Positions 1,747 through 57,930 of a stretch of 64,000 nucleotides of DNA are shown here, piece by piece. This stretch comes from an uncultured bacterium (GTDB lineage: Bacteria > Patescibacteriota > Doudnabacteria > UBA920). Every line of letters begins with the position of its first letter. Position 1 is the first letter of the stretch. The stretch is from positions 43,913 through 107,912 of the forward strand of contig CAVVMJ010000010.1 of the NCBI GenBank assembly GCA_963749445.1, written 5' to 3'. The position numbers and the translations under genes were made by a program. The notes beneath the pieces were generated by a model, which had not been told where the DNA came from, ran no database searches, and worked only from the letters and a program-made list of their open reading frames with translations.

Positions 1747-4700
1747 TTATCTTCCAACCAATTTCAGAAGCGTTTTGCGCTTTTTTACCACCGCGAACGC
1801 GCCGACCATCAATCCGGCAAAAACAAAAGCGTTGGTATCCGCGCCGGTCTTGGGGGCCACAAGCGCTCCCAAAACCTGCGGCGTGTTGATGTTAATCGTT
1901 ATCGCGTTGCCGTAAGTGTTGGTCATAACGTAATGCAGATTGCTGGCCAAAAAGTACTTAATGCGCACGCGGAACGATTTGCTCACGCTGCCGCCGGCCG
2001 ACACAGTAATGGGCGGATAGTTGATGACATTGCCGGAAAGCGTGCCGCCGCCGTTGTCACTGATGTCCGCGTAAGGCAGAACCTGGGACAAATCATCCGT
2101 GACCACAAAGTTGGTGGCCGGCGAATTGCCGTTATTGGTTACCGTCAAAGTGTAAGTAATATAGTCTTCTTTGGAAGCCGGCTGTGTGGTAGCGTCAACA
2201 TTTTTGGTATCGTTCCAGGCTTTTTTGGCGTATATCAAATTAACATTGCCGCCGAGCACGTTGCCGTTGCCGTTAACGAAGACCCACGCGTCATCCTGCA
2301 CATTCGGCACGCTGTCGCCGCGGGCGCTGGCCGTGTTTTCAATGCTGGTGCCGCTGCCGGCCACAACCTGGGCCTGGAAAGTCGCGGTAACGCTCTGACC
2401 CGTGGAAAGCGAGCCCAAATTCAGGCTGTTGCCATACCAGTTGCTGCCGGAATTATAACCGTTGTTGTAATTATTATTGTTGTAATAACCGCCGCTGACC
2501 TGCGTGCTGCCGGAAATCCATTGCAGGCCGCTTACGCCCGCGTCGGTCAAAACCACATTATTGACGCTGGCGTTGCCCGTGTTGGTCACGGTAATTTGGA
2601 ACTGTACGGTATCATTCACGTTGGCGCTTACGGTTTTTTGGAACGAGCCGCCCGCCGTAATATTCCTGACCATTTTTTGGATGCCCAACTGCACGTACTG
2701 GTTATACGGTACCGGGTTATTATAGTAGTAAGGATTACTGTTGGACGACGCGTAGTAATAATAGGTGTTGGTCGTATTAGTTACGTTGTGGGAATCCGTA
2801 GTATTGGTTGTGGTATTGGTTACATTGTGGGAGTCTGTGGTATTCGTAATGTTATGCGAATCGGTGCTGTAATTTATATTATGCGAATCCGAGGTGTTGA
2901 TAATATTATTGCAGGAATTGTTTATGCAGGTATTGATGTTGTTTGTATTGCCGCCGTTGTTGTTATTTGAAGCCTGCAAAGTTATGGCGATAGTAGAAAG
3001 CAGCTGGTTGCAGCTTGCATCATACATCTTAAATACATAACTGCCGCCGGCCTGCAAATCGGAAACCGTTTGCTGGCCGTTGGCACCGCCGCTGGCAAAA
3101 GCCAGTTCCGCGGAAGAGCCGGGGTTGATGCGGGTTATGCGGATTTGGTTGGTGCCCGATGAAGCCCAGCTTATGGTTGAGCTGTAAGCGCTCCCGTTAA
3201 TCAGCAAAGCAGGCGCGGAATAGTTTAAGGTTGCGCCGGTATTGGAGGTACAAACCTGCGGCTGCTGCGAGACATGGACGCTGCAGTTAGCAGATTGGCT
3301 GCCGCTGGTCACGGTTACTGTTTTGGTGCCGATTGAAGTGTAAGTGACTCCGCTGAGCGTATTGCCCAAGGCCGTGCCGTAATTGGCGCCGGGATCGGAC
3401 CAGTTATAACTGCCGTTGCCGCCGGTAGCGGTAAAGTTTACGGCTTGATTGGTTTGGACGCTGGTCGGGTTGGCAAAGCAGGTTAAAGTTTGCGGCTGCT
3501 GGATGACGATGTTAACAACCGGACAACTCACGCCGTTGACTGTGGTTATGCCGCTGGTTACGCCGGCATTAAAGCGGGTAAGAAAAGTCGTGCCCTGGCC
3601 GGCAAACGGCACGGCGCTTTGCGCCGACCAAGTGTAGGTCTGGCTGGAAACAGGGTTGCTAATAGCGTAAGAGACCTGGTCAGACGGCGCATTGCTGCTG
3701 CCGTTTACTGTGGAAGGGGAAGTTAACTGGCAAATCGGCTGATTATTAACAGGAGCAGAACATTTAGCCGAAGCCTGGGCGCTGGCATTGGCCTGGGCCT
3801 GAGCCTGGGCTTGCTGCTGGGCCTGGCTTTGCGCCTTGTTTTGCGCGTCGGCTTGGCTGACGTTGCTGGTGGCTGTGGCGCTGGCCGAAGCCGAGGCCGA
3901 AGCCGAGGCAAACGAGCCGTCAGGGCAGGAAGCGCTGGCCGAAGCCGTGGCGCTGGCCGTGGCAGTTGCCGTAAACGTTCCGGGCTGAACCTGGATATTA
4001 ATAGTCACTATCGGACAGCTCACACCGTTAACGGTAACCGTTCCGGTAGATACACCGGCGTTAAAGCGGGTAAGAAAAGTCGTACCCTGGCCGGCAAACG
4101 GCACGGCGCTTTGCGCCGACCAAGTGTAGGTCTGGCTGGAAACAGGGTTGCTAATAGCGTAAGAGACCTGGTCAGACGGCGCATTGCTGCTGCCGTTTAC
4201 TGTGGAAGGGGAAGTCAACTGGCAAATCGGCTGATTAGCCGGAGCCTGGTTAACCAAAACCGAACAATTGGCGCGCTGGCCGTCAATGCTGCTGACGCTG
4301 GCGGTCTGCGTGCCAACGACACTGTAGTTAACGGTATAACTGGTATAATCCGCCGAAGCGTTCGCCGAAGAAGCGTTGCTGGTAGACCAGCCATAAGCGC
4401 GGCTGGTATCGCCGCCACTGGCGGTAAATACAACCGGTTGACCAAGAGTAATCGAGGCAACGTTGGCGCTGCAGGTTAAAGTCGGAAACTGAGTAGGAGT
4501 GCTACCGCAGCTCAAACTCGGCACAGGCACGTATTTATCAATTTGCGGATAACCATCCGCGGTTAAATAGAAATGTACGGTTTTACCGGGAGTCAACCAC
4601 GGGGCGTCTTGTCCTCCGAAGGGGCTGTTGGCAGCCGCTGCAAATAAACTAGGCTGGCCGGTGGAAGTATTAACTACATAGACTTTAACATTGTTTAAAT

Positions 4701-6642
4701 TGGAAGATGTCCAAGTCACGGTGCCGTCATACAAACATTGATTATAAAGCTGGTTGCCTACCTGGACGTTCAAAGTGGCACTACCGGCCGGAGGAGTGGG
4801 CGTACTGCCGCAGCTCAAAGCGGGCACAGGGACATACTTGTCGATTTGCGGATAATTATCGGCAGTCAAGTAAAAATGGACGCTGGTGCCCGGGGTCAAC
4901 CACGGCGCATCCTGGCTGCCACTTACAGCCGCGGCAAACAAACTCGGCTGGCCGGTTGAAGTATTAACCACGTAAACTTTAACATTGTTTAAATTAGAGG
5001 AAGACCAGGTGACAGTGCCATCATATAAACACTGGTTAGCAACCTGGCTGTTAACCTGAACATTTAACGTAGCGGTGCCGGCCGGAGGAGTGGGCGTACT
5101 GCCGCAGCTCAAAGCGGGCACATTGACGTATTTATCAATTTGCGGATAGTTGTCCGCGGTTAAGTAAAAGTGGACAGACGTGCCCGGAGTAAGCCACGGA
5201 GCATCGGAATTCCCCGAAACGGCGGCGCCGACTAAGCTGGGCTGGCCGGTGGAAGTGTTAACCACGTAGACTTTAACATTGTTTAAATTGGAAGATATCC
5301 AAGTCACGGTGCCGTCATATAAACACTGACCGGAAACCTGTCCGTTAAGATTAACATCCAAAGTAGCTGTGCCGGCCGGAGGGGTAGGCGTACTGCCGCA
5401 GCTCAAAGCAGGCACGCTGACATACTTGTCAATTTGCGGGTAACCATCCGCAGTTAAGTAGAAATGGGTGCTGGTGCCGGGAGTGAGCCACGGCGCATCC
5501 TGGCTGCCACTTACAGCCGCGGCAAACAAACTCGGCTGGCCGGTGGAAGTGTTAACCGCGTAAATTTTAACATTATTTAAATTAGAGGAAGACCATGTGA
5601 CAGTACCATCACCCAAACACTGGCCACTAACCTGGCCGTTGTAGCTTACATCCAAAGTGGCGGTGCCGGCCGGAGGAGTAGGCGTACTGCCGCAGCTCAA
5701 AGCAGGCACGCTGACATACTTGTCAATCTGCGGATAACCATCGGCGGTTAAATAAAAATGGGTGGATGTGCCGGGAGTGAGCCACGGGACATCTGCGTTG
5801 CCGCTTGTAGCGGCGCCAACCAAACCAGGCTGGCCGGTGGAAGTGTTAACCGCGTAAACTTTTACATTATCTAAACCTGAAGAAGTCCATGTTACAGTAC
5901 CATCGCCCAAACACTGGCCACTAACCTGGCCGTTATAGCTTACGTCCAAAGTGGCGGTGCCGGCCGGAGGGGTGGGCTGGGTTTGGCCGGTAACGGTAAC
6001 GGTAAAATAAATCAGTCTGATATAACCAAAACACGCCGGCTGGTCAGGCAAAGAAGCCGAAGAGTTTACAAAATTCAAGCTGCCCTGCCCAATGGGATCC
6101 ATATTCGGATCGCCGGTTCTCGCGCGCCATTGCTGGCCGCTGGCCGAAAGCGTTGTGCCGGAAAGCGTATTAATGTACATCTGGCCGTTTAAGGAATTGG
6201 AAGTGTTGTTAGCCGTAACCGAGGCGGAAATCATGTGACTGTCCGATGTGTTACTGTCAACCGTGGCGCTGACCTGTTCGCCGGTAGCCGCGGGGCCGCC
6301 CACGACCGCGCCGTTGTGCACATATAAAACAAATTCCACCTGGTCGCCGGGCTGGGCGCTAATCATATTATTTTCCGTATCGCCCTGCCAATCGCCGACA
6401 GCTTGCCCGTTGCGCACAATCTGGGCGCGCATAAACGGGGCGTCATTACAGCCGCCGCCGGTATGGGAAATTGAGTAAGGATTTAAAATCGGCGTGCTAA
6501 AAGTCGGGGTGCAGTCGGTTTCCGCGTGCAAAGAATTAATAACCCGCGGAGCCGCGGCCAAAACCGTCAAAGATACCGCAAAAAAACTCACCGCTAAAAC
6601 TGCGCCGACCTTGAAATTTAAAACCTGAGTATATTTTTTCAT
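1747..6642 (-). CDS. giant secreted tandem-repeat cell-surface protein (1631 aa) with sortase-type sorting signal
   Basis: N-terminal signal peptide with hydrophobic core. Five 98-aa (294-nt) tandem repeats. A duplicated roughly 90-aa module, Ser/Ala and Asn/Thr low-complexity tracts, and DUF11-like TVTNNGN segments. C-terminus APKTGAD, then a hydrophobic stretch, then KKRK. Confidence 0.75.
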   Translation of the reverse strand: MKKYTQVLNFKVGAVLAVSFFAVSLTVLAAAPRVINSLHAETDCTPTFSTPILNPYSISHTGGGCNDAPFMRAQIVRNGQAVGDWQGDTENNMISAQPGDQVEFVLYVHNGAVVGGPAATGEQVSATVDSNTSDSHMISASVTANNTSNSLNGQMYINTLSGTTLSASGQQWRARTGDPNMDPIGQGSLNFVNSSASLPDQPACFGYIRLIYFTVTVTGQTQPTPPAGTATLDVSYNGQVSGQCLGDGTVTWTSSGLDNVKVYAVNTSTGQPGLVGAATSGNADVPWLTPGTSTHFYLTADGYPQIDKYVSVPALSCGSTPTPPAGTATLDVSYNGQVSGQCLGDGTVTWSSSNLNNVKIYAVNTSTGQPSLFAAAVSGSQDAPWLTPGTSTHFYLTADGYPQIDKYVSVPALSCGSTPTPPAGTATLDVNLNGQVSGQCLYDGTVTWISSNLNNVKVYVVNTSTGQPSLVGAAVSGNSDAPWLTPGTSVHFYLTADNYPQIDKYVNVPALSCGSTPTPPAGTATLNVQVNSQVANQCLYDGTVTWSSSNLNNVKVYVVNTSTGQPSLFAAAVSGSQDAPWLTPGTSVHFYLTADNYPQIDKYVPVPALSCGSTPTPPAGSATLNVQVGNQLYNQCLYDGTVTWTSSNLNNVKVYVVNTSTGQPSLFAAAANSPFGGQDAPWLTPGKTVHFYLTADGYPQIDKYVPVPSLSCGSTPTQFPTLTCSANVASITLGQPVVFTASGGDTSRAYGWSTSNASSANASADYTSYTVNYSVVGTQTASVSSIDGQRANCSVLVNQAPANQPICQLTSPSTVNGSSNAPSDQVSYAISNPVSSQTYTWSAQSAVPFAGQGTTFLTRFNAGVSTGTVTVNGVSCPIVTINIQVQPGTFTATATASATASASASCPDGSFASASASASASATATSNVSQADAQNKAQSQAQQQAQAQAQANASAQASAKCSAPVNNQPICQLTSPSTVNGSSNAPSDQVSYAISNPVSSQTYTWSAQSAVPFAGQGTTFLTRFNAGVTSGITTVNGVSCPVVNIVIQQPQTLTCFANPTSVQTNQAVNFTATGGNGSYNWSDPGANYGTALGNTLSGVTYTSIGTKTVTVTSGSQSANCSVHVSQQPQVCTSNTGATLNYSAPALLINGSAYSSTISWASSGTNQIRITRINPGSSAELAFASGGANGQQTVSDLQAGGSYVFKMYDASCNQLLSTIAITLQASNNNNGGNTNNINTCINNSCNNIINTSDSHNINYSTDSHNITNTTDSHNVTNTTTNTTDSHNVTNTTNTYYYYASSNSNPYYYNNPVPYNQYVQLGIQKMVRNITAGGSFQKTVSANVNDTVQFQITVTNTGNASVNNVVLTDAGVSGLQWISGSTQVSGGYYNNNNYNNGYNSGSNWYGNSLNLGSLSTGQSVTATFQAQVVAGSGTSIENTASARGDSVPNVQDDAWVFVNGNGNVLGGNVNLIYAKKAWNDTKNVDATTQPASKEDYITYTLTVTNNGNSPATNFVVTDDLSQVLPYADISDNGGGTLSGNVINYPPITVSAGGSVSKSFRVRIKYFLASNLHYVMTNTYGNAITININTPQVLGALVAPKTGADTNAFVFAGLMVGAFAVVKKRKTLLKLVGR
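3470..4235 (-). repeat. duplicated roughly 270-nt module (two copies about 490 nt apart) flanking a Ser/Ala/Gln low-complexity tract
   Basis: aagt(t/c)aactggcaaatcggctgatt at about 3721 and 4212. The protein segment APANQPICQLTSPSTVNGSSNAPSDQVSYAISNPVSSQTYTWSAQSAVPFAGQGTTFLTRFNAGV occurs twice. Confidence 0.8.
4497..6003 (-). repeat. five tandem 294-nt (98-aa) repeats inside the surface protein gene
   Basis: Near-identical DNA blocks starting at about 4500, 4801, 5097, 5391 and 5688 (cgtactgccgcagctcaaagc...). The protein repeats begin TPTPPAGTATL and end PALSCGS. Confidence 0.85.
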
Positions 6643-11576: not shown

Positions 11577-12564
11577 TTAAATCTTTAAATCATTCAATCT
11601 CTCAATTGGACTTATCATCGCATAATTGCACCCGTCCAGAATCCGCGCGCGGAAGTTGGTTACGGAAATCACCATGGCCGCAACCAAAACACTAATCAAT
11701 AAAATCTCAATAAAACTTTGGCGGGTCAAAGCGCCGTCCAGCCGATAATGGAACACGCCCCAGAACAGGTTGTAAGCCGCGGTCATAAAAATAGCGCCTG
11801 TAAAATAATTGTAGCCCCAGCGCACGTACACCAATTGGCCGATTATGGCCATTAATACGGCAATAATCAGCGCCGAAGCGATAGTGTAAAAATTCACCCG
11901 GCGGTGCTGGTAAAGCGCCTGGTAAATCAACAGAAAAGTAAAACACAACACTTCAACGCTGAAATACCAGGCCGGCAGGCAATTATAGCGGAGCCAGGAC
12001 AAAGCGGCCGCGTAAAGTACGCCGACCGCGTAAATTTTGACCACGGTTAAAACCACAAAAATGTCGCGGTCCACGATTTCCCTGCGCCGGTAAAAAATTT
12101 CCTTTAAGTACCAATAATAAAGTAATTAGCGCCGCGGATGACAAAAGCAGGACGGTCTGCTGGATTTTGACAAAACCGAAATTGACGTAAAACAGGGACA
12201 CCGTGGCCCAAAAAATAAATCCGGGCAAAAGCAAAAAATGCAGCCATTGCCGAACGTATGACCAGCGGCGCAGGTGCTCAAAGCGATCCCAAAAAGCGGA
12301 AAAAATTATTTGCCCGTTGCGGTGCAACCTGGAAATTGTGTTTTGGTGCTTGCGTTTGGCCCGCTGCCAGCTGCCGCGCTTTTTAAAATGCAAATCAAAG
12401 AAAAAAACAATATTAAAAATCAAGTATACAAATATCCAAAAAGCCACATTCAAATAAGTGGCCGGCTGGTTAAGATTTAAAATGTAAACCAGCGCTTCAA
12501 AACCACCCAGCACGGCCAGGGCGATGACAAAAAGGGCAACGGTTTTTTGGGTTTTTTGGGTCAT
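11577..12564 (-). CDS. polytopic membrane protein, apparently one gene split by a frameshift near 12075-12125
   Basis: ORFs 11983..12564 and 11577..12074 are both multi-TM. The frame of the downstream ORF stays open upstream as LLYYWYLKEIFYRRREIV, while the upstream ORF tail becomes nonsense. Confidence 0.4.
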
Positions 12565-16228: not shown

Positions 16229-16762
16229 TTATAAATTCTTTAATAGCTTAAAATAATACAAAGCCACCATAACCCAACCGTCGTGAATTTTGCCGCTTTT
16301 AATCATTTTGTCAATTTCTCCCAAGGTAAAACCTTTCATATATATGTCGGCTTCTCCGGATTCCAACTCAGGTTCACCAAATTTTAGCTTTTCGGCAAGA
16401 TAAATTTCCGTCAATTGGTTGTTTGAGCCATTTGAAGGGTTAAATTCCCCCAAATGAACCCATTTGGCCGCGGTAATCCCCGTCTCTTCCTTTAGCTCTT
16501 TTTTAGCCTGCACCAGGAAATTTTTGTTTTCCGCTCCTCCGGCGGGAAACTCCCAACTGCGTTTTTGGACAGGATATCGAAATTGATTAACCAAATAAAA
16601 TTTCTTTCCGTCAAAAGGAACAATCAGGACGCTGGGTTTCTTTTTTAACCAAAAATAAACTCCGTGGGCGCCGTCGGGTTTAATCACTTTGTCTTCATAG
16701 ACTGCGAATTTATAGCATTCATAAACTTTTTTACTGCTGATTTTTTTCCAGGATTTTTTCAT
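16229..16762 (-). CDS. NUDIX hydrolase
   Basis: Nudix box GGAENKNFLVQAKKELKEETGI. Confidence 0.75.
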   Translation of the reverse strand: MKKSWKKISSKKVYECYKFAVYEDKVIKPDGAHGVYFWLKKKPSVLIVPFDGKKFYLVNQFRYPVQKRSWEFPAGGAENKNFLVQAKKELKEETGITAAKWVHLGEFNPSNGSNNQLTEIYLAEKLKFGEPELESGEADIYMKGFTLGEIDKMIKSGKIHDGWVMVALYYFKLLKNL

Positions 16763-17822
16763 GGCTGCTTTAGCTGCCCCGCGGTTAAAGTCAAAGTCAT
16801 CTGGCTTTTGCCGCGAATGATTTTAACACTGATGTTATCCCCCGGCTTGGCTCCGGCCAAGGCCGCTTCCAAAGAATTATTGTCGTTGATGTCGGTTTGC
16901 CCCCAGGTCTGGATTACGTCATTTATCATAAATCCCGCTTTTTGCGCCGGCTGCCCCGAAGTGATGCTGACGACTTTCGCACCAGCAGCCGAACCCAAAG
17001 CCTGGCCCTCAGCCGGGCTCACCATCTTGTAGGAAAACCAAATTCGGGGCGAATAACTTGCCCTTGGTTATTCAAATACAAATTGTCTAAATTCTTAATT
17101 ACGTCAATGGAAACAATGTGCCCCGCATCCCACAAACCCAAAACCGCGCCGTTGGTATCGGCAACCGCGGTTCCCGGGAGCAAAGTGTCGCGATCCTGTA
17201 TGGTAAAAGTCCGACTCGGCATATCGGCGTTTTTTTCGCTCCAGCCTCCTTGCGTCTGGCTAATAAAACTGGCCTCAAACACAGCGGAAAAATTAGTCAG
17301 CTGCGGCGTGGCCAAAATAACCCGTTGTCCCGCGCTTGCGTCTTTGGAGCTCGCAAAATCCGCCACCGGCAAATTCTGCAAATCGGCTTTCAAAATCACC
17401 AAATCCGTCGCGTTATCCGGGGTTAATTTTACCACCGGAGCCAGAGTGCCGTCATCTAATTTTATTTTCAGATTGGATAATTTTTGGCCATCCACAGCGG
17501 ATTTTACGGTGACAAACAGCCCGTCGGAAGTTAAATTCAAAGCTCCGCCCAAAACCGTCACCTGGCCGCCGTTGTCGGATACCAGCAAACTTAACTTCGG
17601 ACGGATGGCGGCCAAAGCTTGCTGGACGTCGCCGCTGTCGCTAACTCGGACTTCCTCGCGGGTATTGATAACTATCGGCGCCTGCGGACTGACCAGCTTA
17701 TAACGGCTCAACAGAGGCAAAGTGGAAACTTTAGCAGTTAGCCAGCGGCCGAATAAGATGCTAAATAACTGCGACAATATGATAGCGGCTATGAGTACAA
17801 AGAAAACTCGCCTTTTATTCAT
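16759..17822 (-). CDS. membrane-anchored HtrA-like protein (trypsin-fold region plus C-terminal PDZ), split by a frameshift near 17019-17025
   Basis: ORF 17019..17822 has an N-terminal TM and a protease-like region. ORF 16759..17025 is a PDZ domain. The canonical GNSGG serine motif is not evident. Confidence 0.45.
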
Positions 17823-19528: not shown

Positions 19529-20110
19529 CTAGAACAATGCCGCCTGATGCTTCACTCCCACCCGCGGCGCGGCGTCCGCGATTTTCAGCGGTATTTCTTT
19601 GGTCTTAAAAAAATCTTTATACAGCAGCTTTTGGTTTTTTAACGCGTAATCGTAAATTTGTTTGGTGATTTTTACGTCGTCGGTGCAATATTTTTTAAGC
19701 AAATCCATTCTTCCGTTTTTGTAATACAAAAGCGCCTCCAGCCCGCTGCCGGACTTGCCGCTGCCCAGCGTACCCTGGGCCACCAGTTCCAATTTTATCC
19801 GGTGGTGCAAAACCTTTTCAATTTCCGCGAGCAAATCCAAATACGGAACCTCGTCTATATTAAAATTTAAATAAGGTTTTAAAACCTCAAAATCAAAATC
19901 TTTTATGTTATAACCGATAATCTGGTCTGCGGTCTGTAAAATCGGCGCCAGCCTATTAAGCTCGTGCTCTTCGTAAGCTGTATATTTGTCGGTGCTGTAA
20001 TCGTAAATTACGCAAACACTCACCTTTAACAAATGGTTCTTCCCCCGCCCCCCTACATCCTGGAAAGATTTCTGGGTTTCAAGATCTAATACAATCTTTT
20101 TTAAAAACAT
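19529..20110 (-). CDS. RNase H-like 3'-5' exonuclease (YprB/PolB-exo-like)
   Basis: DEDD-type motifs LDLETQ, YNIKDFDFEVL and CTDDVKITKQIY. Confidence 0.5.
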   Translation of the reverse strand: MFLKKIVLDLETQKSFQDVGGRGKNHLLKVSVCVIYDYSTDKYTAYEEHELNRLAPILQTADQIIGYNIKDFDFEVLKPYLNFNIDEVPYLDLLAEIEKVLHHRIKLELVAQGTLGSGKSGSGLEALLYYKNGRMDLLKKYCTDDVKITKQIYDYALKNQKLLYKDFFKTKEIPLKIADAAPRVGVKHQAALF

Positions 20111-20951
20111 TTTGGTTTTATTGATCAGTTATATATAAGCAATGTAGCGTGCCGATTCATCGGCGTCCGAAAACCGCCCATAAATGGGCACGCTACACTT
20201 ATTCATTATATAAAACATTTGTCAAAAAGACAAAAAAAGCTCTCTGCCAGATCAGAGAGCAACGGTACCCGGAAGCCCGCGTGCGGCCCCGGGATTTTTC
20301 TACGATACGCAACCGTTCAAAAACAAACGGCTGGTTCCCGCGGCAGATGCTGGCAACCGCGAAAAATTCATAATTGCGGCCCGGAGCTTTCGCCCCGGAC
20401 TGTGCCCCATGTGGGGCTCCTTCTCCTTGGTATTGTATACCCGCTTGCCAGTTCAGGCGGGGTGATGCAAAAGGGCAGAAGCCCCAACTACGCCCAAAAT
20501 ATCACCGATATTACTGGTTGGGCCTGCCTGATCAAACGCTCCCGGAGCTAAATGGAGTTAAAAAATATCAGGGCAGAAGCGCCTGCAGTCCTCGGCCGTC
20601 AACCGAGTCCTTTGGCGATTTTTTGCCCCTATTTCGTCCAAACCATCAGGGGCCAATGGATTGCACGTTGGGCTATCGGCTCAGCAGGTTGACGGACATC
20701 GTCGCACTCATAGACGAAACTCCCTTCTTCATGTGTTCCAATTGTTTTTCCGCAGGCCTTTTTCCTGCGGCGATTGGTTTAACCAGATATTACTCTCTCT
20801 CTCTGTTTTTGTCAACATTTTTGCCATTTTTACAATTTTGTTGTAAAATACTTTTATCATTGATTTTTAACAGCCCTACCGACTGTTTATCGGACGAGGG
20901 CTATCCTCAGAGGCCGATAAATCGGCAAACTACACTGGGGTGAAAGCAAAT

Positions 20952-22815
20952 ATGCAACGAACACTATCTTTGGAAACGCCCGAAAAAATCGGGCAAGACG
21001 TCTCGGTTGAGGGCTGGGTAAATTCCCGGCGCGACCACGGGGGCGTTATTTTTATTGATTTGCGCGACCACACTGGTTTGGTCCAGCTCGCGATTCATCC
21101 TGATGAAAAAGAGGCTTTCGCGGCCGCTGATAAATGCCGCGACGAGTTTGTAATAAAAGCCGAGGGCAAAGTTATTGAACGGTCGCCCGAAACCAAAAAC
21201 GAAAACCTGCCCACAGGCGGCGTGGAAATTTTAACTTCATCTATCGTCATCCTTAATACTTCCAAACCCCTGCCGTTTCAGGTGGCGCACGGCCATGGTG
21301 AAGAACAGGAAATTAACGAGGATTTGCGATTAAAATATCGGTTCCTTGATCTGCGCCGCGAAAAAATGCAAGCAATGCTCGTCAAACGGCACAAAATGAT
21401 TAAGTTTATCCGCGACTGGATGGACGAACATCAATTTATAGAAATCACCACGCCGATTCTGACTTCCAGCAGCCCCGAAGGCGCGCGCGACTTTTTAGTG
21501 CCGTCGCGCCTGCACCCCGGAAAATTTTACGCTCTGCCGCAATCGCCTCAGCAATACAAACAGCTGCTGATGACCGGCGGCGTGCCGCGCTATTTCCAAA
21601 TCGCGCCATGTATGCGAGACGAAGACCCGCGTGCGGACAGAAGCCCGGGCGAACACTACCAGCTGGACTTGGAAATCGGTTTTGCCCAGGAACCGGAAGA
21701 TGTGTTTTCGGTGATGGAGCCGTTTTTTGTGGAGTTGGCCGAAAAATTCGCGGACAAAAAAATCTGGAAAAAACCTTTCCCGCGCATTTCCTACGAAGAC
21801 GCCATGAATTTATACGGCTCGGATAAACCGGATTTGCGTTTTGGAATGGCAATGGTGGATTTAACGGAAGATTTACGCAATACAAAATTTAGCGTTTTCG
21901 GCAACGCCATAAAAAACGGCGGGGTGGTCAAGGCCATTTGTTGCGACGACGGCGCAAAATTAACCCGCTCGCAAATTGACGAACTTACGGAAATGGTCAA
22001 AAAAGAAGGCGCCGGCGGGCTGGCGTATATTGTTGTTGATAGCAAATCCGATAGTGGCGTAGAGGCACGCCGCGGCGTGCCTGATCAAGACGGCATGCCT
22101 CGGCATGCCGCTACAGGGACAGAAAACCTCCGCTCCCCCATCCTTAAATTTTTATCATCTGACGAAATTTCCGCCATCCTCACCAAAACCAAGGCCGAGC
22201 CCGGTGACATTATTTTCTTTGGCGCGGACCAGTTGCCGATTGTGAACAAAGTCCTCGGGAAGCTCCGCAGTAAACTTGGCGACGTCTTCGGGTTAAAAGA
22301 TCGAAAACCTAATAGCCTGGGCCTGGATTTACAACTTCCCGATGTATGAATACAATGAGCAGGAAAAGCGCCTGGACTTCGGCCACAATCCGTTTTCCAT
22401 GCCCAAAGGCGGGCTGGAAGCATTAAACACGCAAGATCCGCTCAAAATCATTGCCCAGCAATATGACATTGTGGCCAACGGCCTGGAAATTTGCTCCGGC
22501 GCCATCCGCAATTACCATCCCGAAACTATGTATAAGGCTTTTGAAATTGTTGGTTACGACAAAAAAACTGTGGACGAAAAATTCGGCGGCATGATCCGCG
22601 CCTTTGAATTTGGCGCGCCGCCGCACGGCGGCATGGCCCCGGGCATTGATAGGATAATGATGCTTTTGGAAAATGAACCCAACATCCGCGAAATTATCGC
22701 CTTCCCCAAAAACGGCTCAGCCGAAGACGTCATGATGGGCGCCCCCGGCACCGTGGAAGAAAAACAGTTAAAAGAATTGCATATAAAACTGGACCTTCCA
22801 AAACCTAAAAAATAG
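20952..22815 (+). CDS. aspS: aspartyl-tRNA synthetase, with an apparent frameshift in an A4 run near 22295-22298
   Basis: N-terminal anticodon-binding OB fold, class II motifs and motif 3 [19 protein letters not shown]. ORFs 20940..22349 and 22342..22815 are in different frames. The upstream frame reads ...GLKD and the downstream frame ...[16 protein letters not shown], matching the E. coli sequence around WAPLWVIDFPMFE. Confidence 0.85.
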
Positions 22816-22875
22816 CAGTCCATCCCGGAATTTTTTGCGCTGATGGCTATCACAGGCCGCAAAAAATATCCGGGA
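22816..22875 (+). repeat. hairpin repeat family F2, copy 1
   Basis: CATCCCGGAATTTTTTGCG - 20-nt loop - CGCAAAAAATATCCGGGATCC. Near-identical copies at 43998-44057 and, inverted, at 55140-55213. Confidence 0.8.
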
Positions 22876-22971
22876 TCCAGAATCGAGCAAAAATCTGGAT
22901 TCCCGCTTCCGTGGGAATGGCAAAGAGTAATTCACCGATTTATCGGTCATAAAAAATTAAATGCAAAAAAA

Positions 22972-27974: not shown

Positions 27975-28864
27975 TTATTGGTTCCCCAAAAACAAAACCA
28001 CGGTGCCTAAAAAAATCAAGGCAATTGCGGCGAGCTTTAATTTAACGGCGTGACGGTCCGTGTCTTCATCCAAAATATGCCGGAATTTGTAGCTTAAAAT
28101 TAAAGCGAAAATAAATAAAAAAGCGTAGCGGAAGCCTGACAATCCGTCCACTATGGGAACTTTGCCACGCGCCAAAAAATAGCTCAAAAAAATAAAATTC
28201 AATCCGCCGAGCGCCTGTTTAAAGACAAACAAAACGCCGGTATGGGCTTTTTTTCAACGTGTTCGGTAACCAGCGCGGCGCGGCGGAATTTTGGAATAAC
28301 CAATAAAATTATCAGGACGCCGGCCGCGCCCAAGCGGTTCCACATTAAATTATTTAAGCTTGACCCAACCTGCGCCCCGTACTGCCACAAAAAATTATAA
28401 GCGCTGTATAAAAACGCGGAAAGCAGCGCCAGGCCGAGAATCTTTTGGTAATCTTTACCGGAATGATAGCCAATCAATAGCGCCCCCGGTATTAGCAGCG
28501 CCATGGCCCCCAACTCCGTGGTTGTCAATGCGCTGCGCCCCGTGGCAAAAGATAACAGCACGTCAAATACCGGTACCAAACCAAAAATCAAAGGCACCAC
28601 GCGCGACACCTCGCCGTGAGACAAAACTTTGTAATACACGTACATCACCAGCCCAAAAAACGCGCCCGACAAAAGGTTAAAAAAAATAAATTTACCCGGG
28701 AGGGGATTATAAACCCACGGCCAGATTGCCAGCAAAAGCGCGCCCGTAACCACGGTATAAAACGCGTACGACAGCGGCTGGATTTTGCGCTTGCTGATTA
28801 AAAATTTGTCGAACAAATCGACAACGGCAAAGCTGGCATAGAGGAGGATAACTTGTGCGAGCAT
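27975..28864 (-). CDS. EamA/DMT-family transporter, apparently split by a frameshift in a T7 run near 28249-28256
   Basis: ORFs 28199..28864 and 27975..28232 are both multi-TM and adjacent in different frames. Confidence 0.5.
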
Positions 28865-28984: not shown

Positions 28985-30210
28985 TTAAATCTCCAAATAA
29001 TTATTCTTGCATACTTCCGCAAACTTGACGGCGCTAAAGCGCACCCTGCGACGCAGCAAATCTTCGCGGTCAATTTCCACCAGCCCGAACCGCGGCCAAA
29101 AACCTTCTTCCCATTCAAAATTATCGGTAAGCGACCAGTACAGGTAGCCGCGCACGTCCGCATTTTTTTGGATGGCGCGGTGCACATAGAACAAATGGTC
29201 CTTAATGAATTTTTCCCGCTTTTCGTCTTTGCGATCCGCGATGCCGTTTTCCAAAATATAAATCGGCTTGCCGTAGCCTTTAATCCCAAGCAGTACGCGC
29301 TCAATGCCTTCGGGATGTATGCCCCAGCCGCGGTCGGTTTCGTTATGCTGGCTGTGGCTGTGCTTGCGCAGGCCGAACAGGCCGAGGTGGTGGTGGAAAT
29401 AATAATTCACGCCAATGTAATCGCACGTCTTGATGGTGCGGCGTAAAATATAATCGTTAACTACATAATCCGCCAAGCCCGCCGCCAAGCCGCCCAAAAA
29501 TCCGTAAGGCTGCAAGTCAGACAAATTAAACGCCAAACTTACCGGCTGACGCAGATGCTGCTGGATGTATTCGGCCAATAAATTGTGGGACCTGATTAAA
29601 TTATCCACCACTCTCCAAGCCGTGCGGAAACTTTTAACCTGCGGCGGATGCACGCCCAGCCAATAACTTTGTCCAGCGTACAGGCCAGGCTCGTTAATTG
29701 TCACCCAAAAATCCACGTACTGGCTCAACCGCCTGGCGGTATGCCGCGCATAGTGCAAAAAATCGCTGATGTTTTCTTTTTTGGTAAATCCCCCTTTTTC
29801 ATAAACCACACCGGGCTGGTATAATGGTGCAAAGTCAAAAATACTTTCAGCCCGTGATATTTGGCGGACTGCAAAATTTTTTCGTAATGGTCCAAAGCCT
29901 TTTCGTCAAACACGCCTTCTTTGGGCTCTATGCGCGACCATTCCACGCCAAACCGCGTGGCGTTTTGGTTAAGATGCTCAGCCAAAGCGAAATCTTCATC
30001 GTACCGGTTATAAAAATCGCAGGCAATACCACTCTGGAATTCGGCCGGATTTTTACCCGCTTTCCTGAGCGCGTCTTCCCGCCGCGGCGACCGTTCCCAA
30101 ACCCACCAATCCGCGTTGCTGTTACCGCCCTCGGTCTGGTAAGCGCCGCTGGCCGCCCCCCACAAAAAATCTTTGGGAAAGATAAATTTTTGTATCTGTT
30201 TCATTGCCAA
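28985..30210 (-). CDS. GH1 beta-glucosidase, split by a frameshift near 29790-29800 (C5/T5 runs)
   Basis: N-terminal FLWGAASGAYQTEGG. Acid/base TINEP and nucleophile YILENG in the downstream ORF. The junction lies between NEP and YILENG, inside the catalytic barrel. Confidence 0.75.
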
Positions 30211-30620: not shown

Positions 30621-31663
30621 TGGTTTAATGGTAAATTCTAGTGCTTGAAACCGGCTAAAACTTCCTCGATTAACCGCCAGCGCCTGTCGCGTTTCAGACC
30701 GCTATGGATGCCAATCAGTTGTTTAAGATATTTAAAACTGCCGTCTAAAGAATTCGTAGTATTGGGAATATTTAAACCGGTATATCGTTGGTAAGTAAAC
30801 AGGTAAGGCGCGTTGGTTTTCAAACTCCGATAAGCAGACCTAATTCGCTTGTGGGTGTAAAACCACTTTTTAGGATTAAAGGGATTAACGGTTCGTTCTT
30901 TTAAAAAGTCTCCCCATTTTTCATGCCAGGCATCCAGCAACAACAGCAACATGTTTTCAGTTAATTCAGTTAAAGCCAAGGCAATCATCCGCAGTTCTTT
31001 TCCCGCTTCCAGCTTCGGCCGTTTGGTCAAATACCTGGTAACGATGGCCATTTGGTGGAACTGGCAGACTTGTACCGGAATGTCGGAAAACACTTCTCTG
31101 ACGCCCTTTTTACCGTCTAAGACCACTGCTTCAAAGGTGTAGCCCAATTCTTCCAGCAGTTGTCTGGCTTCCCGATACACATCAGCCGTTTCAGTTTTAA
31201 CCTCCGTCCAGTACAGGTTCTGTTTAAGGTCAAAGGATCTAAAAACCAACACCCCGTAACCCCGACCCCAGAATGTGCAATCAGCGATGGCAACTACAGG
31301 TTGCGGATAAAGGCGAAATGACTTTGTAGGAGCTTTATCCAGCTGCTGCCGAATCCACTTTTCACTCCGCTGATATTTTTTAACCAGCTGCTTAACTGTT
31401 TGTTTGCCCCAGATGTATTGCCGCCAGAGGGCGCGTTGAAGTTTCTGTTTACGCCGTTTATTCTCAAAATTCTTTCCGCAATTCTTGCACTGGTAACGCT
31501 GGAGCCCTAACTGTTTCCCTTTCTTAATAATTGCCGAAGAACGGCATCTTGGGCACTTTTTTTACAAGCCATACATAATCAAAGTTAATTATTTATCTTA
31601 AGTATGGCACAAACGCCGAAATCTAAGCACTAATATTTACCATTAAGCCAAATGTGTTAACAT
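30621..31663 (-). mobile_element. IS1595-family (ISXO2-like) insertion sequence next to tRNA-Glu
   Basis: Imperfect terminal inverted repeats TTAATGGTAAATTCTAGTGCTT (30626-30647) and, on the other strand, TTAATGGTAAATATTAGTGCTT (31636-31657). One transposase gene inside. Confidence 0.7.
30638..31572 (-). CDS. IS1595-family transposase (N-terminal zinc ribbon plus DDE domain), frameshifted in a homopolymer at 31557-31563
   Basis: With one extra A the N-terminus reads MACKKKCPRCRSSAIIKKGKQLGLQRYQCKNCGKNF (the Zn_Tnp_IS1595 pattern) and continues into the 204-aa DDE ORF. As sequenced there is no ATG in that frame. Confidence 0.7.
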
Positions 31664-32084
31664 ACTGCACACCTACCCGCCAGGCGGGCGGATCGCTGGT
31701 TTTCTATAAACCGGACAAAGGCTATTTAAGCAAACTTTTAAGGACAAAACGAAGAGAAACCGCCTTTTAAGTTGCCATGAATAGCAGGCCTGCCTGCCGA
31801 AAAAACCGGAGGACAAGTTTCGTCTTGCCGCGTTATCGGCTGCCGTATCGCCTTCAGGTCCGCGGCGAAACAGCACGCTGAGCGCGACATTGCCATGAGG
31901 GCAGCTGATTGGGCTTTTCATCTGCGGCCCGCAGTTGCCCTCGTCGGCAAAATTTCAATTTGAGATCGTTGATCAGCAGAAACCTATCCGGTGAACATCA
32001 TTGGGGATACCCGGAACAGGATGCCGATTTTGGGCTTTGCCCAAACAAGCAGAACACGACTGTTTGGTTTCAACGATTCTCCGG

Positions 32085-32128
32085 CCCGGCAATTGGTTTC
32101 AAGCACCAATTGCCGGGTGCGTTTTTTT
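32085..32128 (+). terminator. rho-independent terminator on the plus strand with no upstream plus-strand CDS
   Basis: CCCGGCAATTGG - 9-nt loop - CCAATTGCCGGG followed by TTTTTTT. Confidence 0.6.
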
Positions 32129-32368
32129 ATACCCGCGGCCAAAGCACACCCCTGAATTCGTTGTTCACGATTAGCGGAACGCCGCGCAAACTTTGCACGC
32201 GCGCGGAAATTTCACTCACCGGGCATCGGTGGGCGCGGTTTGATCCGCAGGAGCAATGCGCGCATAAGCCGGAAAGTTGGCTCACAATGTTCAATTTTTG
32301 CTTTTCAAGTTCGCTCATAAATTAGTGAGTAGTTAGTAGCGGGTAGTCAGTAGCCAAACAGAATGTGC

Positions 32369-32722
32369 TCAATTTTTGTTTTGAATAAGCTTGTTAAGCA
32401 TTTTCATAACCTCCTCAAGCAAGCTGTCAACTTTTGAAAAATCCAAGCCTTTGCCGAAAGGCAATCTTTTTGCTATTTCTATTTGGGTTTCCAATTCGGC
32501 TCCGGAAGCAAAAGCAATCGACAAAAAATGATAAAACTCATTATCCCCGAATCTACGCCTGCCCTCGGCAATATTTGACGGAATAGAAACTGAGCAACGG
32601 CGAGACTGCGAAACTAAACCATACAACTCATTCGGTGGATATCTTTCCGTAAGCTTATATACTTCAACGACTAAATCCATTGACTTGCGCCAAACAATTA
32701 AATTTTTGTAATCCGCGTACAT
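32369..32722 (-). CDS. four-helix-bundle protein (TIGR02436; 23S rRNA intervening-sequence protein family)
   Basis: SIPSNIAEGRRRF...EFYHFLSIAFASGAELETQIEIAKRL signature. Confidence 0.75.
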   Translation of the reverse strand: MYADYKNLIVWRKSMDLVVEVYKLTERYPPNELYGLVSQSRRCSVSIPSNIAEGRRRFGDNEFYHFLSIAFASGAELETQIEIAKRLPFGKGLDFSKVDSLLEEVMKMLNKLIQNKN

Positions 32723-37056: not shown

Positions 37057-38421
37057 TCAGAATGACGCCCTTGATAAATAATCTCCGATAATTTGCCTGG
37101 TTTCGTCCAGGTTTTTTGTTTGCATTAGCTTGGCGCGTAGCTCGTGCGCGCCGGCAAAACCGGAACAATAAGCTTTAAAATGCTTGCGCATAATCGCGAA
37201 TGATTTATTTTTGCCAAGTTCCCGGTCAAACAGTTCCGCGTGTTCCAGCATGACGCGGAGGCGTTCTTTTATGTCCGTCTGGTAATTATCATCGCGAAAT
37301 ACCCAAGGGTGCCCAAACGCTCCCCTGCCGATCATTACGCCGTCGCAACCCGTCTCCGCGACGCGCGCCAGCCCTTCCTCGCGCGACTTAATGTCGCCAT
37401 TCCCGATAATCAAAGTCTTAGCCCTTAGCCCTAAAACCTTAGCCCTGATATTCACCGCCTCGGCAATCTTGTCCCAATGCGCCGGAACTTTGGACATTTC
37501 CTGTTTGGTACGGCCGTGCAAAATCAGCGCCGCGATGTCCATCGCGAGCAAATTTTCCACCCATTTTTCCATCTCCGATGTTTTGCTGTAGCCGATGCGG
37601 GTTTTGACTGATATCGGCACCAAAACCACCTCCCCCCTCGGCTTCGCTCGGGGTACTCCTCCTTGAAAAGGAGGAGAGCTCCGCACTTTATCCGATAACG
37701 GGGACAATTGCGGAGCCTCCCCTCCTGTTAAGGAGGGGTGTCCCGCGGAGCGGGACGGGGTGGTTGGAGATTGCACGGATTGTCCCGACAGCCACCCTTC
37801 TTTTGTCGCGCTGATGATTTCCCAGGCGAGTTTCGGTTCGCGGATAAGCGCCGCGCAAGTCCCGCCCGCAATTTCTTTTTGCTGCGGACAGCCCATATTA
37901 ATGTCAATGCCGTCAAATTTTAAATCGCGGATGATTCGCGCGGCCTCTTTAAATTTTTCCGGGTCGCGCCCCCACAACTGCGCCACAATCGGTCTCTGCG
38001 CTTCGCTGTATTTTAAATCGATGGATAAATTTTTCCTGCCTTCCGGATGCGTCAACCCGTCCACGTTTATAAATTCCGTGAACGTAACAAAATTATTACC
38101 ACCTCCCCCGCCTTCGGCGGGTACTCCTCCTATGAGAGGAGGAGAGCTCCGCAAAATATTCGAGGATAACCGCGGAGCGCTCCCCTCCTTTTTTGAGGCC
38201 TTGATGAAGGCAAAGGAGGGGTGGCTCGCGCAGCGAGACGGGGTGGTACTTCCACTTTTAACTTTTAATTTTCCACTTTTAACTTGCCCGCCATAGCGGG
38301 CCACCATCTCCCGAAACGCAAAGTCAGTGACTTGCTCCATCGGAGCCAAGCAAAATATCGGTTTCTTTAAATTATTCCAAAAATTATTCATTGCGCAAGC
38401 AAACGACCTCTCTGTCGCCAA
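37057..38421 (-). CDS. tRNA-dihydrouridine synthase (Dus family; specific paralog not determined) carrying three in-frame repeat-element insertions
   Basis: CLAPMEQVTDFAFREMV, DINMGCPQQKEIAGGTCAAL and IGNGDI motifs. At 454 aa versus about 330 expected. Inserts correspond to family F1 copies at 38098-38240 and 37625-37766 and a short TTAGCCCT repeat at 37416-37451. Confidence 0.8.
   Translation of the reverse strand: MATERSFACAMNNFWNNLKKPIFCLAPMEQVTDFAFREMVARYGGQVKSGKLKVKSGSTTPSRCASHPSFAFIKASKKEGSAPRLSSNILRSSPPLIGGVPAEGGGGGNNFVTFTEFINVDGLTHPEGRKNLSIDLKYSEAQRPIVAQLWGRDPEKFKEAARIIRDLKFDGIDINMGCPQQKEIAGGTCAALIREPKLAWEIISATKEGWLSGQSVQSPTTPSRSAGHPSLTGGEAPQLSPLSDKVRSSPPFQGGVPRAKPRGEVVLVPISVKTRIGYSKTSEMEKWVENLLAMDIAALILHGRTKQEMSKVPAHWDKIAEAVNIRAKVLGLRAKTLIIGNGDIKSREEGLARVAETGCDGVMIGRGAFGHPWVFRDDNYQTDIKERLRVMLEHAELFDRELGKNKSFAIMRKHFKAYCSGFAGAHELRAKLMQTKNLDETRQIIGDYLSRASF
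37625..37766. repeat. palindromic repeat family F1, copy A (module order 1 then 2), inside dus
   Basis: CCACCTCCCCCC..GGGGTACTCCTCCttgaaaaGGAGGAGAGCTCCGC ... GCGGAGCCTCCCCTCCtgttaaGGAGGGGTG..GGGACGGGGTGG. Confidence 0.85.
38098..38285. repeat. palindromic repeat family F1, copy B, plus adjacent tandem TTCCACTTTTAACTT x2, inside dus
   Basis: Same module structure. Module 2 is nearly identical to the copies at 62499 and 63405. Confidence 0.85.
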
Positions 38422-39757: not shown

Positions 39758-39900
39758 AATTTATTAGTAGTTAGCAGATAGTATTTAGCAGTTAGGGCTA
39801 GATCGACCTCGTAGCCGATAAATATCCTTTTAATAAAAAGACTCGGGCTTACCCGAGTGAATAAGTGTAGTGTGCACATTTATGGGCAACTAATGATGGC
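39758..39900 (-). promoter_or_regulatory. rplJ 5' leader (candidate L10-leader autoregulatory structure)
   Basis: A 140-nt untranslated region with hairpin potential (GGGCTTACCCGAG..) upstream of rplJ. Call is by position only. Confidence 0.3.
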
Positions 39901-39911
39901 CGATAAATCGG

Positions 39912-40040
39912 CGCACTACATTTTCCTCGGTGGGTTTACCCGCCTAAATTTTGCGCTTGTCTTTAGGGTTTGATAAATAACGAAATAATTTTGTTATCGA
40001 TCAAATTTCCAACTAATTGGGCAAAATTTTGGCGGGTGAA
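39912..40040. repeat. MITE-like repeat family F4, second element
   Basis: TTTACCCGCCTAAATTTTGCGC ... AATTGGGCAAAATTTTGGCGGGTGAA flanking an 85-nt core. Confidence 0.7.
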
Positions 40041-41509: not shown

Positions 41510-42386
41510 ATGCGGAAAAAATATTCCTCTTTTTTAACCAGTTTGGCGGCGGCGGTTATTGTTATGCCGGTTTTTTTGGCGCAAACGGCGGCTGCGCAAA
41601 CCGTTAACAGCTCACGCAACTGGGCGGGTTATGTGGCTCAAAGCGGGCCGTACACCTCGGTCAGCGGTTCCTGGGGTTGTACCAGCAGTAAGCGGCGCGG
41701 GATCAACATCAGCCGACGCAGAGTGGGTCGGCATCGGCGGCGTCAGCTCCCCCGATTTAATCCAAAGCGGCACCCAGGCAATTACGGACACCAACGGACA
41801 AATTACATACCAGGCCTGGCTGGAAACTTTGCCGCAGGTCTCGCAATTCATCCCTGTTGCCGTCAAACCCGGCGACAGCGTAAGCGCGTCCATTACCCAA
41901 ACCTCGACCAACCAGTGGCAAATAGTTTTTAATGATTTAACCTCCACCCAAACTTTCCAGACAACTGTATCATACGTCTCTTCCCAATCTTCAGCAGAAT
42001 GGATAGTGGAAGCGCCGGCCTTGCGCGGCGGATTTTTGCCCCTGGATAATTTTGGCACAATCCAATTCAGCGGCGGCTTGGCAACGGCTAACGGCCAAAC
42101 TCAAACCATCGCGGGATCCGGCGCCGCGATTATTAACATGCTCAACAACAGCCAACAGGCATTGGCCAATGTTTCGGCTTTGGATGGTTCCGGCCAAAGC
42201 TTTACCGTAACCCGCACTTCTGCCACCGCCTCACCGCCGACCGGCCGCTACATTATTTCCCGCGGCCGCACTTTCCGCCGCGGCGGCAGTGGCGTCAACC
42301 AGCGCACGACCTGGCCGTGGGGTTTTGGCGGCAATGGTTTGAGAAATAATAACCGGATGATGTTTAGGTTTTCGTTTGATAGATAA
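41510..42386 (+). CDS. secreted peptidase G1 (eqolisin/scytalidoglutamic peptidase)-like protein, with a frameshift in a G4 run near 41672-41675
   Basis: Signal peptide; SRNWAGYVA, AEWVGIGG and QSSAEWIVEAP motifs of the G1 family. The N-terminal 50 aa lie in the frame of ORF 41510..41932 and the rest in 41559..42386. Confidence 0.55.
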
Positions 42387-43929: not shown

Positions 43930-43997
43930 CTTTTTGTTTGCCCAAAAATCCCTGAAATGGGATTTTTTTCTTATTAACAAATCCTACAGGCCTTCCC

Positions 43998-44057
43998 ATC
44001 CCAGAATTTTTTTGTGCTGATGGTATTCATCGGCCACAAAAAAATATCCGGGATCCA
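43998..44057 (+). repeat. hairpin repeat family F2, copy 2
   Basis: CATCCCAGAATTTTTTTGTG ... CACAAAAAAATATCCGGGATCC. Confidence 0.8.
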
Positions 44058-44198
44058 AAAAGAAGCGCAACTGGATCCCGGCTCTCGGCGGCACTCGGCC
44101 GGGATGGCACAAGAAATACAAAACTTACCATCAATCATTGCCAACTTTTTTATTTTGCCCTATAATTTACGAAGAAATATCATTAATTAAAAGCAAAC

Positions 44199-55139: not shown

Positions 55140-55213
55140 AGGTAAAAGCCTATATCTGGATCCCGGATATTTTTTGCGGCTTATAATAATCGTCAACGCA
55201 AAAAATTCCGGGA
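55140..55213 (-). repeat. hairpin repeat family F2, copy 3 (inverted orientation)
   Basis: Reverse complement reads CCATCCCGGAATTTTTTGCG ttgacgattattataagc CGCAAAAAATATCCGGGATCC. Confidence 0.8.
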
Positions 55214-55221
55214 TGGAACCT

Positions 55222-57691: not shown

Positions 57692-57772
57692 AATGAAAAA
57701 TCCTTACTTAAAATATAGCAAAGATAAGGATTTTTTACAATGATTGATGTCACGACGTTGTTGCTTAGGAAA

Positions 57773-57930
57773 ACTGCGGAGCATTCCCCTCCTATTCCCA
57801 GAATATCATCAGAATATAGGAGGGGTGTCGCCCGCAGGGTGACAGGGTGGTAAATACAGGTTGCCGATGTCTACCACCTCCCCCTGCTAGTGCAGGGTAC
57901 TCCTCCTGTTCCAGGAGGAGAGGCTCCGCA
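57773..57930. repeat. palindromic repeat family F1, copy D (module order 2 then 1), intergenic
   Basis: GCGGAGCATTCCCCTCC..GGAGGGGTG..GGGTGGTA - spacer - TACCACCTCCCCC..GGGTACTCCTCCtgttccaGGAGGAGAGGCTCCGC. Confidence 0.85.

Follow-up and report, generated by a model that had tools for sequence, protein, structure and literature searches.

The 64,000-nucleotide stretch analyzed here (the window; positions 43,913 to 107,912 of contig CAVVMJ010000010.1) comes from an uncultured Doudnabacteria bacterium, and it raises a question about its own reliability: why are seven of its genes, including the essential aspartate-tRNA ligase gene aspS, each split into two open reading frames (ORFs) that lie in different frames? 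Such breaks might be errors of the consensus sequence, marks of recent pseudogenization, or sites of recoding. We think it likely that the contig is a long-read consensus, that six of the seven breaks are consensus errors, and that the seventh, in the transposase gene of an insertion sequence (IS), is real DNA and probably a conserved slippage site. The initial annotation had attributed all of the breaks, as most likely, to uncorrected indels of homopolymer-prone chemistry or low-coverage long reads. That explanation suits the six genes outside the IS, where a second assembly reaches four of the sites and repairs two of them and orthologues are unbroken, but it does not suit the transposase, whose break is conserved.

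It had been stated that the window contains eight frameshifts, at least five of them in homopolymers. Seven were named, and every one of the seven genes is indeed a pair of adjacent ORFs in different frames, with a ±1-base break within ~25 nucleotides (nt) of the coordinate first given. No eighth frameshift was found in the parts of the window that can be checked by homologues or Pfam. Pfam searches of overlapping or adjacent ORF pairs (12641/13408/13757, 24858/25076, 48172/48732, and others) revealed no further frameshift, and tblastn with the ORFs of 80 further metagenome loci did not yield an eighth. Breaks were placed by aligning intact homologues and by trying every single-base deletion or insertion within 80 to 100 nt, the repaired protein being scored against eight orthologues; positions were also refined with contigs of the second assembly, which were obtained from Logan. 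The statement about homopolymers held, as runs of at least four bases contain five of the seven sites. Among the six sites outside the IS, the count is four (chance of at least four of six, P = 0.009).

The six genes outside the IS have much in common. Each carries a single ±1-nt break, both flanks are in frame and homologous to one protein, and there is no other lesion. Three of the breaks are one-base insertions. The first is in aspS (20952 to 22815, plus strand), which consists of an N-terminal ORF of 465 amino acids (aa) at 20952 to 22349 and a C-terminal ORF that is open from 22297, has its first ATG at 22342, and ends at 22815. The extra base lies within G-ATC-GAAAA at 22299 to 22307 (context, GATCGAAAA), where the best placement is 22301 to 22303 and 22304 to 22307 is nearly as good. 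The break in aspS is therefore where the initial annotation had sensed it but not in the A4 run at 22295 to 22298 that it had named, because a repair there would remove an Asp that 25 of 25 aligned homologues have, and it scores 72 points lower. The second insertion is in a membrane protein gene with a weak DUF5656-like match (11577 to 12564, minus strand). Its break had been put at about 12100 and is now refined to 12115 to 12128, an AT-rich segment (TAATTACTTTATTA) in which runs do not exceed three bases; a T6 run at 12092 to 12097 was also tried as the site and was ruled out by homologue scoring. The third is an extra G in the G4 run at 41673 to 41676 of a gene for a peptidase A4 (MEROPS G1) with a signal peptide (41510 to 42386, plus strand).

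The other three breaks are one-base deletions, all of them in genes on the minus strand. The gene for an HtrA-like protease with Trypsin_2 and PDZ_2 domains (16759 to 17822) lacks a base in a four-base run at 17034 to 17037; the interval previously named, 17019 to 17025, is merely the overlap of the two ORFs. The gene for an EamA-family transporter (27975 to 28864) lacks a base in a seven-base run at 28248 to 28254, the coding strand of which reads GAAAAAAAGCC where A8 would be expected. Finally, a GH1 beta-glucosidase gene (28985 to 30204) lacks a base in A5G5 (C5T5 on the plus strand, 29790 to 29799). For the EamA, GH1, and peptidase genes, the breaks stood and their coordinates needed only to be sharpened to those given here.

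Are such breaks a property of the lineage? A scan of species-representative genomes yielded 40 related loci, of which two, L007 and L011, are MFD long-read metagenome-assembled genomes (MAGs). For a frameshift screen, all ORFs of at least 70 aa from 41 related loci were searched against all loci and the window, and continuations that switched frame were flagged. The window has five frame switches in the 21.9 kb that is comparable with relatives, and each of these five sites is spanned by 16 to 62 intact homologous ORFs (16 at the membrane-protein site). Not one true frameshift is present in the 666 kb of the 39 related loci that lie outside the MFD Nanopore set, an apparent one in L025 being a run of N. 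The sole true frameshift in the ~710 kb of related loci (41 in all) is in L007, a Nanopore-only MFD MAG. If the rate in the 39 loci were at its 95 % upper bound, at least five events in 22 kb would still have a probability of P ≈ 7e-8, and so, by this comparison of sequences, the excess of frameshifts is a feature of this assembly rather than of the lineage. The L007 event is a 1-nt insertion, GTC[A]GTC, at L007:8898-8920, which splits an RNase-H-like gene upstream of aspS.

The broken genes were also examined for the decay that pseudogenes undergo. There were no extra stops, and in five of five genes compared, conservation downstream of the break was about equal to or above that upstream. Against the L002 orthologue, the two parts of aspS have 84.7 % identity upstream and 92.9 % downstream. 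The corresponding upstream and downstream values, each for the best homologue, are 63.5 % and 83.7 % for the EamA gene, 74 % and 90 % for the GH1 gene, 62.5 % and 71.4 % for the membrane protein gene, and 52.8 % and 52.1 % for the HtrA-like gene. For the peptidase site, the comparisons used were with Pfam and with a contig of the second assembly (L045), and the break is absent in both.

Further evidence comes from that second assembly of the population. Six Logan k-mer contigs of run ERR10755942, retrieved by exact-protein look-ups, cover 15.5 kb of the window and are 99.9 to 100 % identical to it, differing by three single-nucleotide polymorphisms (SNPs) and four one-base homopolymer lengths. 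They reach four of the break sites, those of the HtrA-like, peptidase, EamA, and GH1 genes, and they repair two of the four, in both cases by the exact base change that had been predicted from homologues. In the HtrA-like gene, contig L043 has five bases where the window has four at 17034 to 17037 (T4→T5), which restores FGFSYKMVSPAEG / EFGFSYKMVSPAEG. In the peptidase gene, L045 has G3 where the window has G4 at 41673 to 41676, and its Peptidase_A4 gene is intact at 291 aa. Whether these two breaks are present depends directly on which assembly is read. The SNPs between the window and the Logan contigs are at 13968, 15651, and 29414 and represent slight population variation or consensus noise.

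The second assembly has its own faults. L043 carries two private deletions, with four bases versus five at window positions 17288 to 17292 and again at 16900 to 16904, and these break the HtrA-like gene where the window agrees with homologues. Because the window and L043 are broken at different homopolymers, the consensus must be noisy in both assemblies, and this pattern fits noisy homopolymer calling rather than strains with different dead copies of the gene. It also bears on another explanation, in which the contig would be a consensus over coexisting strains with real indels and the breaks would be chimeric artifacts of strain mixing. Some population variation is indeed indicated by the three SNPs in 15.5 kb between the window and the Logan contigs. 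However, of the seven differences, four are homopolymers that differ in length by one base within conserved coding sequence, and real strains would need different frameshifts in the same protease gene, each assembly being broken where the other is intact. We consider strain mixing highly improbable.

What process, then, could have produced six such breaks in one contig? We propose that the contig was built, very probably, from Nanopore reads alone without short-read polishing, and that the six breaks would be single-base consensus errors, mostly in or next to homopolymers, in genes that would be intact in the cell. An unpolished long-read origin is indicated by the 372-kb length of the contig, by the NCBI and ENA sources, by the MFD relatives, and by the homopolymer deletions in contigs of the ERR run. 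The data suggest that the reads of ERR10755942 are long reads too, with which its ENA accession agrees, and the window would appear to derive from MFD-LR or a similar long-read-only project. The MFD-LR catalogue is based on Nanopore reads only (LSK114/PRO114M), assembled with Flye and subjected to one round of Medaka without short-read polishing; ENA has the Nanopore reads as PRJEB58634, and NCBI has the short reads as PRJNA1071982 (PMC12313526). R10.4 bins with less than ~40-fold coverage still need polishing, and homopolymer indels fragment their gene calls (Sereika et al. 2022, PMC9262707).

The breaks in the window resemble the errors of long-read-only assemblies (PMC9262707, PMC12313526) in several ways. 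They are ±1-nt events, mostly in homopolymers, with intact flanks and unbroken orthologues; run lengths differ between the two consensus sequences; and a relative that is a Nanopore-only MAG has such an event too. They are unlike those errors in that two of six (aspS and the membrane protein) lie outside long homopolymers and three of six are insertions, whereas deletions are the more usual kind; in addition, the platform is inferred here.

Several observations speak against this account of the six breaks. Both insertions outside long homopolymers are awkward for it, since the aspS site is at GATC beside A4 and the membrane-protein site has no homopolymer context, and both of these sites are outside the Logan coverage. 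The L007 insertion nevertheless indicates that Nanopore-only MAGs also carry single-base insertions outside homopolymers. The 8/7 ratio of homopolymers in the window is 0.12 versus 0.21 in related loci, so that the spectrum is not clearly truncated. Moreover, at the EamA (A7) and GH1 (A5G5) sites, the runs in contig L044 are as long as those in the window; both of these breaks thus persist in the second assembly, and a decaying operon would look alike. Were ERR10755942 an Illumina run, it would establish the EamA and GH1 frameshifts as real. A lack of runs of at least nine bases was also considered as a Nanopore signature and was discarded, as the same cut-off is present in the related loci, nearly all of which are outside the MFD set.

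The EamA and GH1 genes accordingly deserve separate treatment. They adjoin one another in a single sugar-utilization cluster, together with a ROK kinase and another glycosidase and beside the IS insertion. Homopolymers are hot spots for real slippage mutations too, and some of the breaks, foremost these two, could be real and recent pseudogenes that arose by replication slippage in A8 and in A6G5 (or A5G6) as the cluster was being lost. The identical run lengths in the window and L044 and the shared neighborhood would both agree with such a loss. On the other side, L044 most likely stems from the same error-prone reads, given that two homopolymer deletions break ORFs in its sister contig L043, and for this reason a contraction could recur in both assemblies. 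Also, the parts downstream of the breaks have no further lesion and are 90 % (GH1) and 84 % (EamA) identical to L002, above the upstream values, and both genes are intact in every relative that covers them. The two breaks are either systematic contractions common to both consensuses or real mutations. We regard it as rather unlikely that at least one of the two is real, and errors remain the probable explanation for this pair.

There is a further way in which breaks at these sites could be real without loss of function. Poly(A) frameshifts are rescued by transcriptional slippage in the reduced genomes of endosymbionts such as Buchnera and Blochmannia. By analogy, the EamA A7, GH1 A5G5, and aspS breaks might be real DNA, with the genes kept working by transcriptional or ribosomal slippage, like the A7 of the IS256-type element discussed below. 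The likeness is that of a small-genome bacterium with A-run frameshifts in otherwise intact genes (EamA A7 and GH1 A5G5). Unlike the endosymbiont cases, the window has 48 % GC, the runs are 5 to 7 nt long and not at least 9, and the frameshifts are known from consensus sequence alone. We think such a rescue highly improbable and return to consensus error as the preferred account of the six breaks.

The possibility of recoding was examined for aspS. With the intact 607-aa L002 orthologue as the query, tblastn places aa 1 to 438 up to 22301 and aa 439 to 607 from 22303, and deleting either T22301 or C22302 reproduces the L002 codons GAC/GAT-GAA-AAC. AspRS homologues have the Pfam domains tRNA_anti-codon, GAD, and tRNA-synt_2, and the best full-length ones (72 to 87 % identity) are from MAGs of Candidatus Doudnabacteria and other Patescibacteria. 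The 465-aa N-terminal fragment of the window itself is on record in the protein collection, as the product of a 372,259-bp contig present in NCBI and ENA. The gene is in a single frame in 40 of 40 related loci and in the 120 best homologues. Exact-protein look-ups of the aspS halves returned no record, and a chimeric 400-aa query recovered no junction-spanning fragment of aspS, the membrane protein, or the transposase at 100 % identity. An odd segment of the AspRS was examined as a possible hidden double frameshift and was dismissed, as the segment is common to P0003, P0005, and P0009.

If the aspS break were real, full-length AspRS could still be made through programmed +1 ribosomal frameshifting or through rescue by transcriptional slippage. 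Both halves of the gene are perfectly preserved, and a +1 shift of tRNA-Lys on AAA-C (22305 to 22308) would yield gap-free GLKDRKLIAWAW. The arrangement is also like that of prfB-type programmed +1 frameshifting, in which an essential translation gene lies in two frames, +1 apart. Unlike prfB-type sites, however, the aspS site is not conserved in orthologues, the break being absent from the 40 related loci and the 120 best homologues. Inspection of the sequence at the shift site revealed no in-frame stop, no rare A-site codon, and no Shine-Dalgarno-like stimulator of the prfB kind, and the 90 nt downstream have no significant structure (minimum free energy of -14.4 kcal/mol; z = +0.83 versus shuffled sequences). 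At four bases, the A run is much too short to cause transcriptional slippage, and the five other nonconserved ±1 breaks in the window call for a common technical cause. Programmed frameshifting in aspS had been offered initially as a fallback; with no stimulator, no structure, and no relative that shares the break, it is hardly credible.

Given that both halves are conserved, that orthologues are unbroken, that no recoding signal was found, that insertions occur in L007, and that R10.4 assemblies need polishing, the aspS break appears to be a consensus error. The membrane-protein break, like that in aspS, has all the properties of an error and is likewise a probable one. The initial annotation had also held out extensive recent pseudogenization, or programmed frameshifting, in case the frameshifts were real; nothing was found that requires extensive pseudogenization or recoding of housekeeping genes.

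The surroundings of aspS have features of their own. Upstream, an ORF-free stretch of ~830 nt (20111 to 20939) contains a 72-nt near-perfect hairpin at 20135 to 20206, of which there is a related copy at 39858 to 39922. In L002, the interval that matches 20111 to 20939 has a GIY-YIG gene. Rfam searches of the ORF-free stretches 20100 to 20960 and 31560 to 32380 gave nothing meaningful. Directly after the aspS stop, at 22819 to 22907, lies one member of a short repeat family whose copies occur right after gene ends, the others being at 43996 to 44083 and 55155 to 55217. These repeats may be terminator-like elements.

The transposase break requires a different explanation. The gene belongs to a complete IS of ~1.03 kb (30621 to 31650, minus strand) with 26-bp imperfect terminal inverted repeats. 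The inverted repeats, and with them the DNA homology to L128, L129, and L133, end at 30621 and 31650, and contigs of ERR10755942 break ~30 nt inside both IS ends, as expected of a multicopy repeat. When repaired, the transposase matches NCBIfam model NF048019 (IS256 family, variant Zn-binding type) with 322.8 bits against a cut-off of 150 over residues 9 to 307. The four-Cys N-terminal domain NF048018 matches residues 6 to 36 of the fused protein, and this model needs the first CxxC. The element had been labeled IS1595, a label that does not survive these searches: Pfam detected no DDE_Tnp_IS1595 catalytic domain in the transposase, only weak zinc-ribbon similarity, and NCBIfam ranks the IS256 Zn-binding variant first.

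The frame changes in an A7 run at 31557 to 31563 (minus strand), at codons 4 to 6. The start frame, ATG GCT TGT AAA AAA AGT, stops after ~20 codons. The -1 frame, TAA AAA AAG TGC CCA AGA TGC, encodes KK-CPRC (the first half of the zinc ribbon) and then the whole transposase, and it lacks its own start codon. The full transposase, from MAC-KKK-CPRC onward, would be made only if the transcript or the ribosome slipped by -1, such that A7 is read as A8.

Homologous elements share this arrangement. A homologue with 90 % identity (L128-L132) is present on five contigs of other datasets (two ENA contigs named in the MEGAHIT style and three Logan contigs of SRR runs), and a homologue with 59 % identity (L133) is present on one contig with a SPAdes-style name. 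Both lineages have an ATG, two codons, and T-A7-GTG (ATG-GNN-TNT-A7-GTG), followed by a CxxC in the -1 frame, at an equal distance to the left inverted repeat. The codons that flank A7 differ between the homologues and the window, and the downstream ORFs of the homologues are intact (296 aa). Because the same break is found in the 90 % and 59 % homologues on six contigs of other datasets, the A7 break is, on this comparative evidence, real DNA. Baranov et al. 2005 used conservation as a comparative criterion for functional slippage sites (PMC1088944); here, the run and its two-frame layout are conserved in the window, in L128-L132 (90 %), and in L133 (59 %). The A7 run is thus probably a programmed slippage site.

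Other members of the family are informative as to what a fused product would look like. In 5 of 120 homologues as called, an in-frame Met precedes the first CxxC, namely, P0245, P0261, and P0265 (M-x-W-C-I-K-K-C-x-F-C), P0276 (M-Q-K-K-C-P-E-C), and P0214, with N termini such as MLWCIKKCNFC and MQKKCPEC. The rest start raggedly inside or after the CxxC, which is the pattern that a family-wide upstream stop would produce. Read-through of the TAA from an in-frame MYGL mini-ORF was also considered as a source of the N terminus and was rejected, since L133 has ATA in place of the ATG of this mini-ORF and retains the other ATG. No further IS copies were found in a viral-contig collection or among the related loci examined, and no recoding has been described for IS256 in the literature searched.

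Some points count against slippage by design at this site. No stimulatory RNA structure was detected downstream of the A7 run (z = +0.70); P-site re-pairing for a ribosomal -1 shift is imperfect; and efficient transcriptional slippage would usually take a run longer than A7. The break might instead be an ordinary inactivating mutation or a sequencing error. In favor of this reading, A7 is a seven-base homopolymer in an assembly that has homopolymer errors, the start-frame product is only ~20 aa (in contrast to what is classical for IS1 and IS3), and no stimulatory structure was detected. Yet the run length and the frame layout are identical at 90 % and 59 % identity across MEGAHIT-style, SPAdes-style, and Logan assemblies, flanking codons differ among homologues while downstream ORFs are intact, and the element is multicopy in ERR10755942, as judged by the contig breaks at both of its ends. 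We therefore consider an unprogrammed origin of the A7 break unlikely. As for the mechanism of a programmed shift, the lack of downstream structure would fit transcriptional slippage better than ribosomal -1 frameshifting.

The putative site is like the A-run slippage known from IS1, IS3, and other IS families (PMC1088944; Atkins et al. 2016, PMC5009743) in that a conserved A-run joins two frames and the fusion product is encoded by one uninterrupted ORF in some members of the family. It is unlike those systems in its position at codons 4 to 6, in a product of ~20 aa that is not a DNA-binding regulator, in the length of the run (only A7), and in the family, IS256. Within the IS256 family, the A7 run is a candidate for programmed slippage. 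This transposase family has >3,000 database homologues, almost all on contigs of 1 to 2 kb and without any Pfam domain, and three of the three lineages examined at the DNA level have the A7 frame break at the start of the gene, as a consequence of which gene callers truncate these transposases.

Near the IS, a conserved noncoding block at 32140 to 32360 stands beside a gene for an Avd-like 23S_rRNA_IVP four-helix-bundle protein (32369 to 32722). The block has 67 to 72 % DNA identity to L007:19935-20134 and L010:21161-21396, whereas neither similarity at the protein level nor an Rfam match was found. A consensus fold of the three sequences contains some compensatory pairs and is not convincing.

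For users of this assembly, the consensus-error reading of the six breaks would imply ~1 frame-breaking error per 10 kb in the contig and probably in the whole genome bin. Gene calls, pseudogene counts, and metabolic reconstructions made from it will then underreport intact genes, including the essential aspS. Polishing is needed before gene loss is claimed in this lineage of the candidate phyla radiation.

Two further features of the window involve repeats. The first is a 1,631-aa ORF with DUF11 repeats at 1747 to 6642, which contains tandem DNA repeats with a period of ~300 nt and 75 to 79 % identity (4491 to 5977) as well as a 226-nt repeat pair (3520 to 3745 and 4012 to 4237). The second is a family of repeats of ~60 to 165 nt, with copies at 37625 to 37764, 38097 to 38251, 49570 to 49697, 57766 to 57930, 62489 to 62661, and 63396 to 63558. 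Copies are intergenic and also lie in frame in two tRNA-modification genes: the Dus ORF (454 aa), whose Pfam match falls into two stretches, contains two, and one is in MnmA (aa 148 to 190). Relatives are without these Dus and MnmA segments or have different variable inserts in their place. In translation, the copies give peptides of the PLLLKRR…/PLLGRRGGSA type, and these in-frame repeats resemble the in-frame palindromic elements of Rickettsia.

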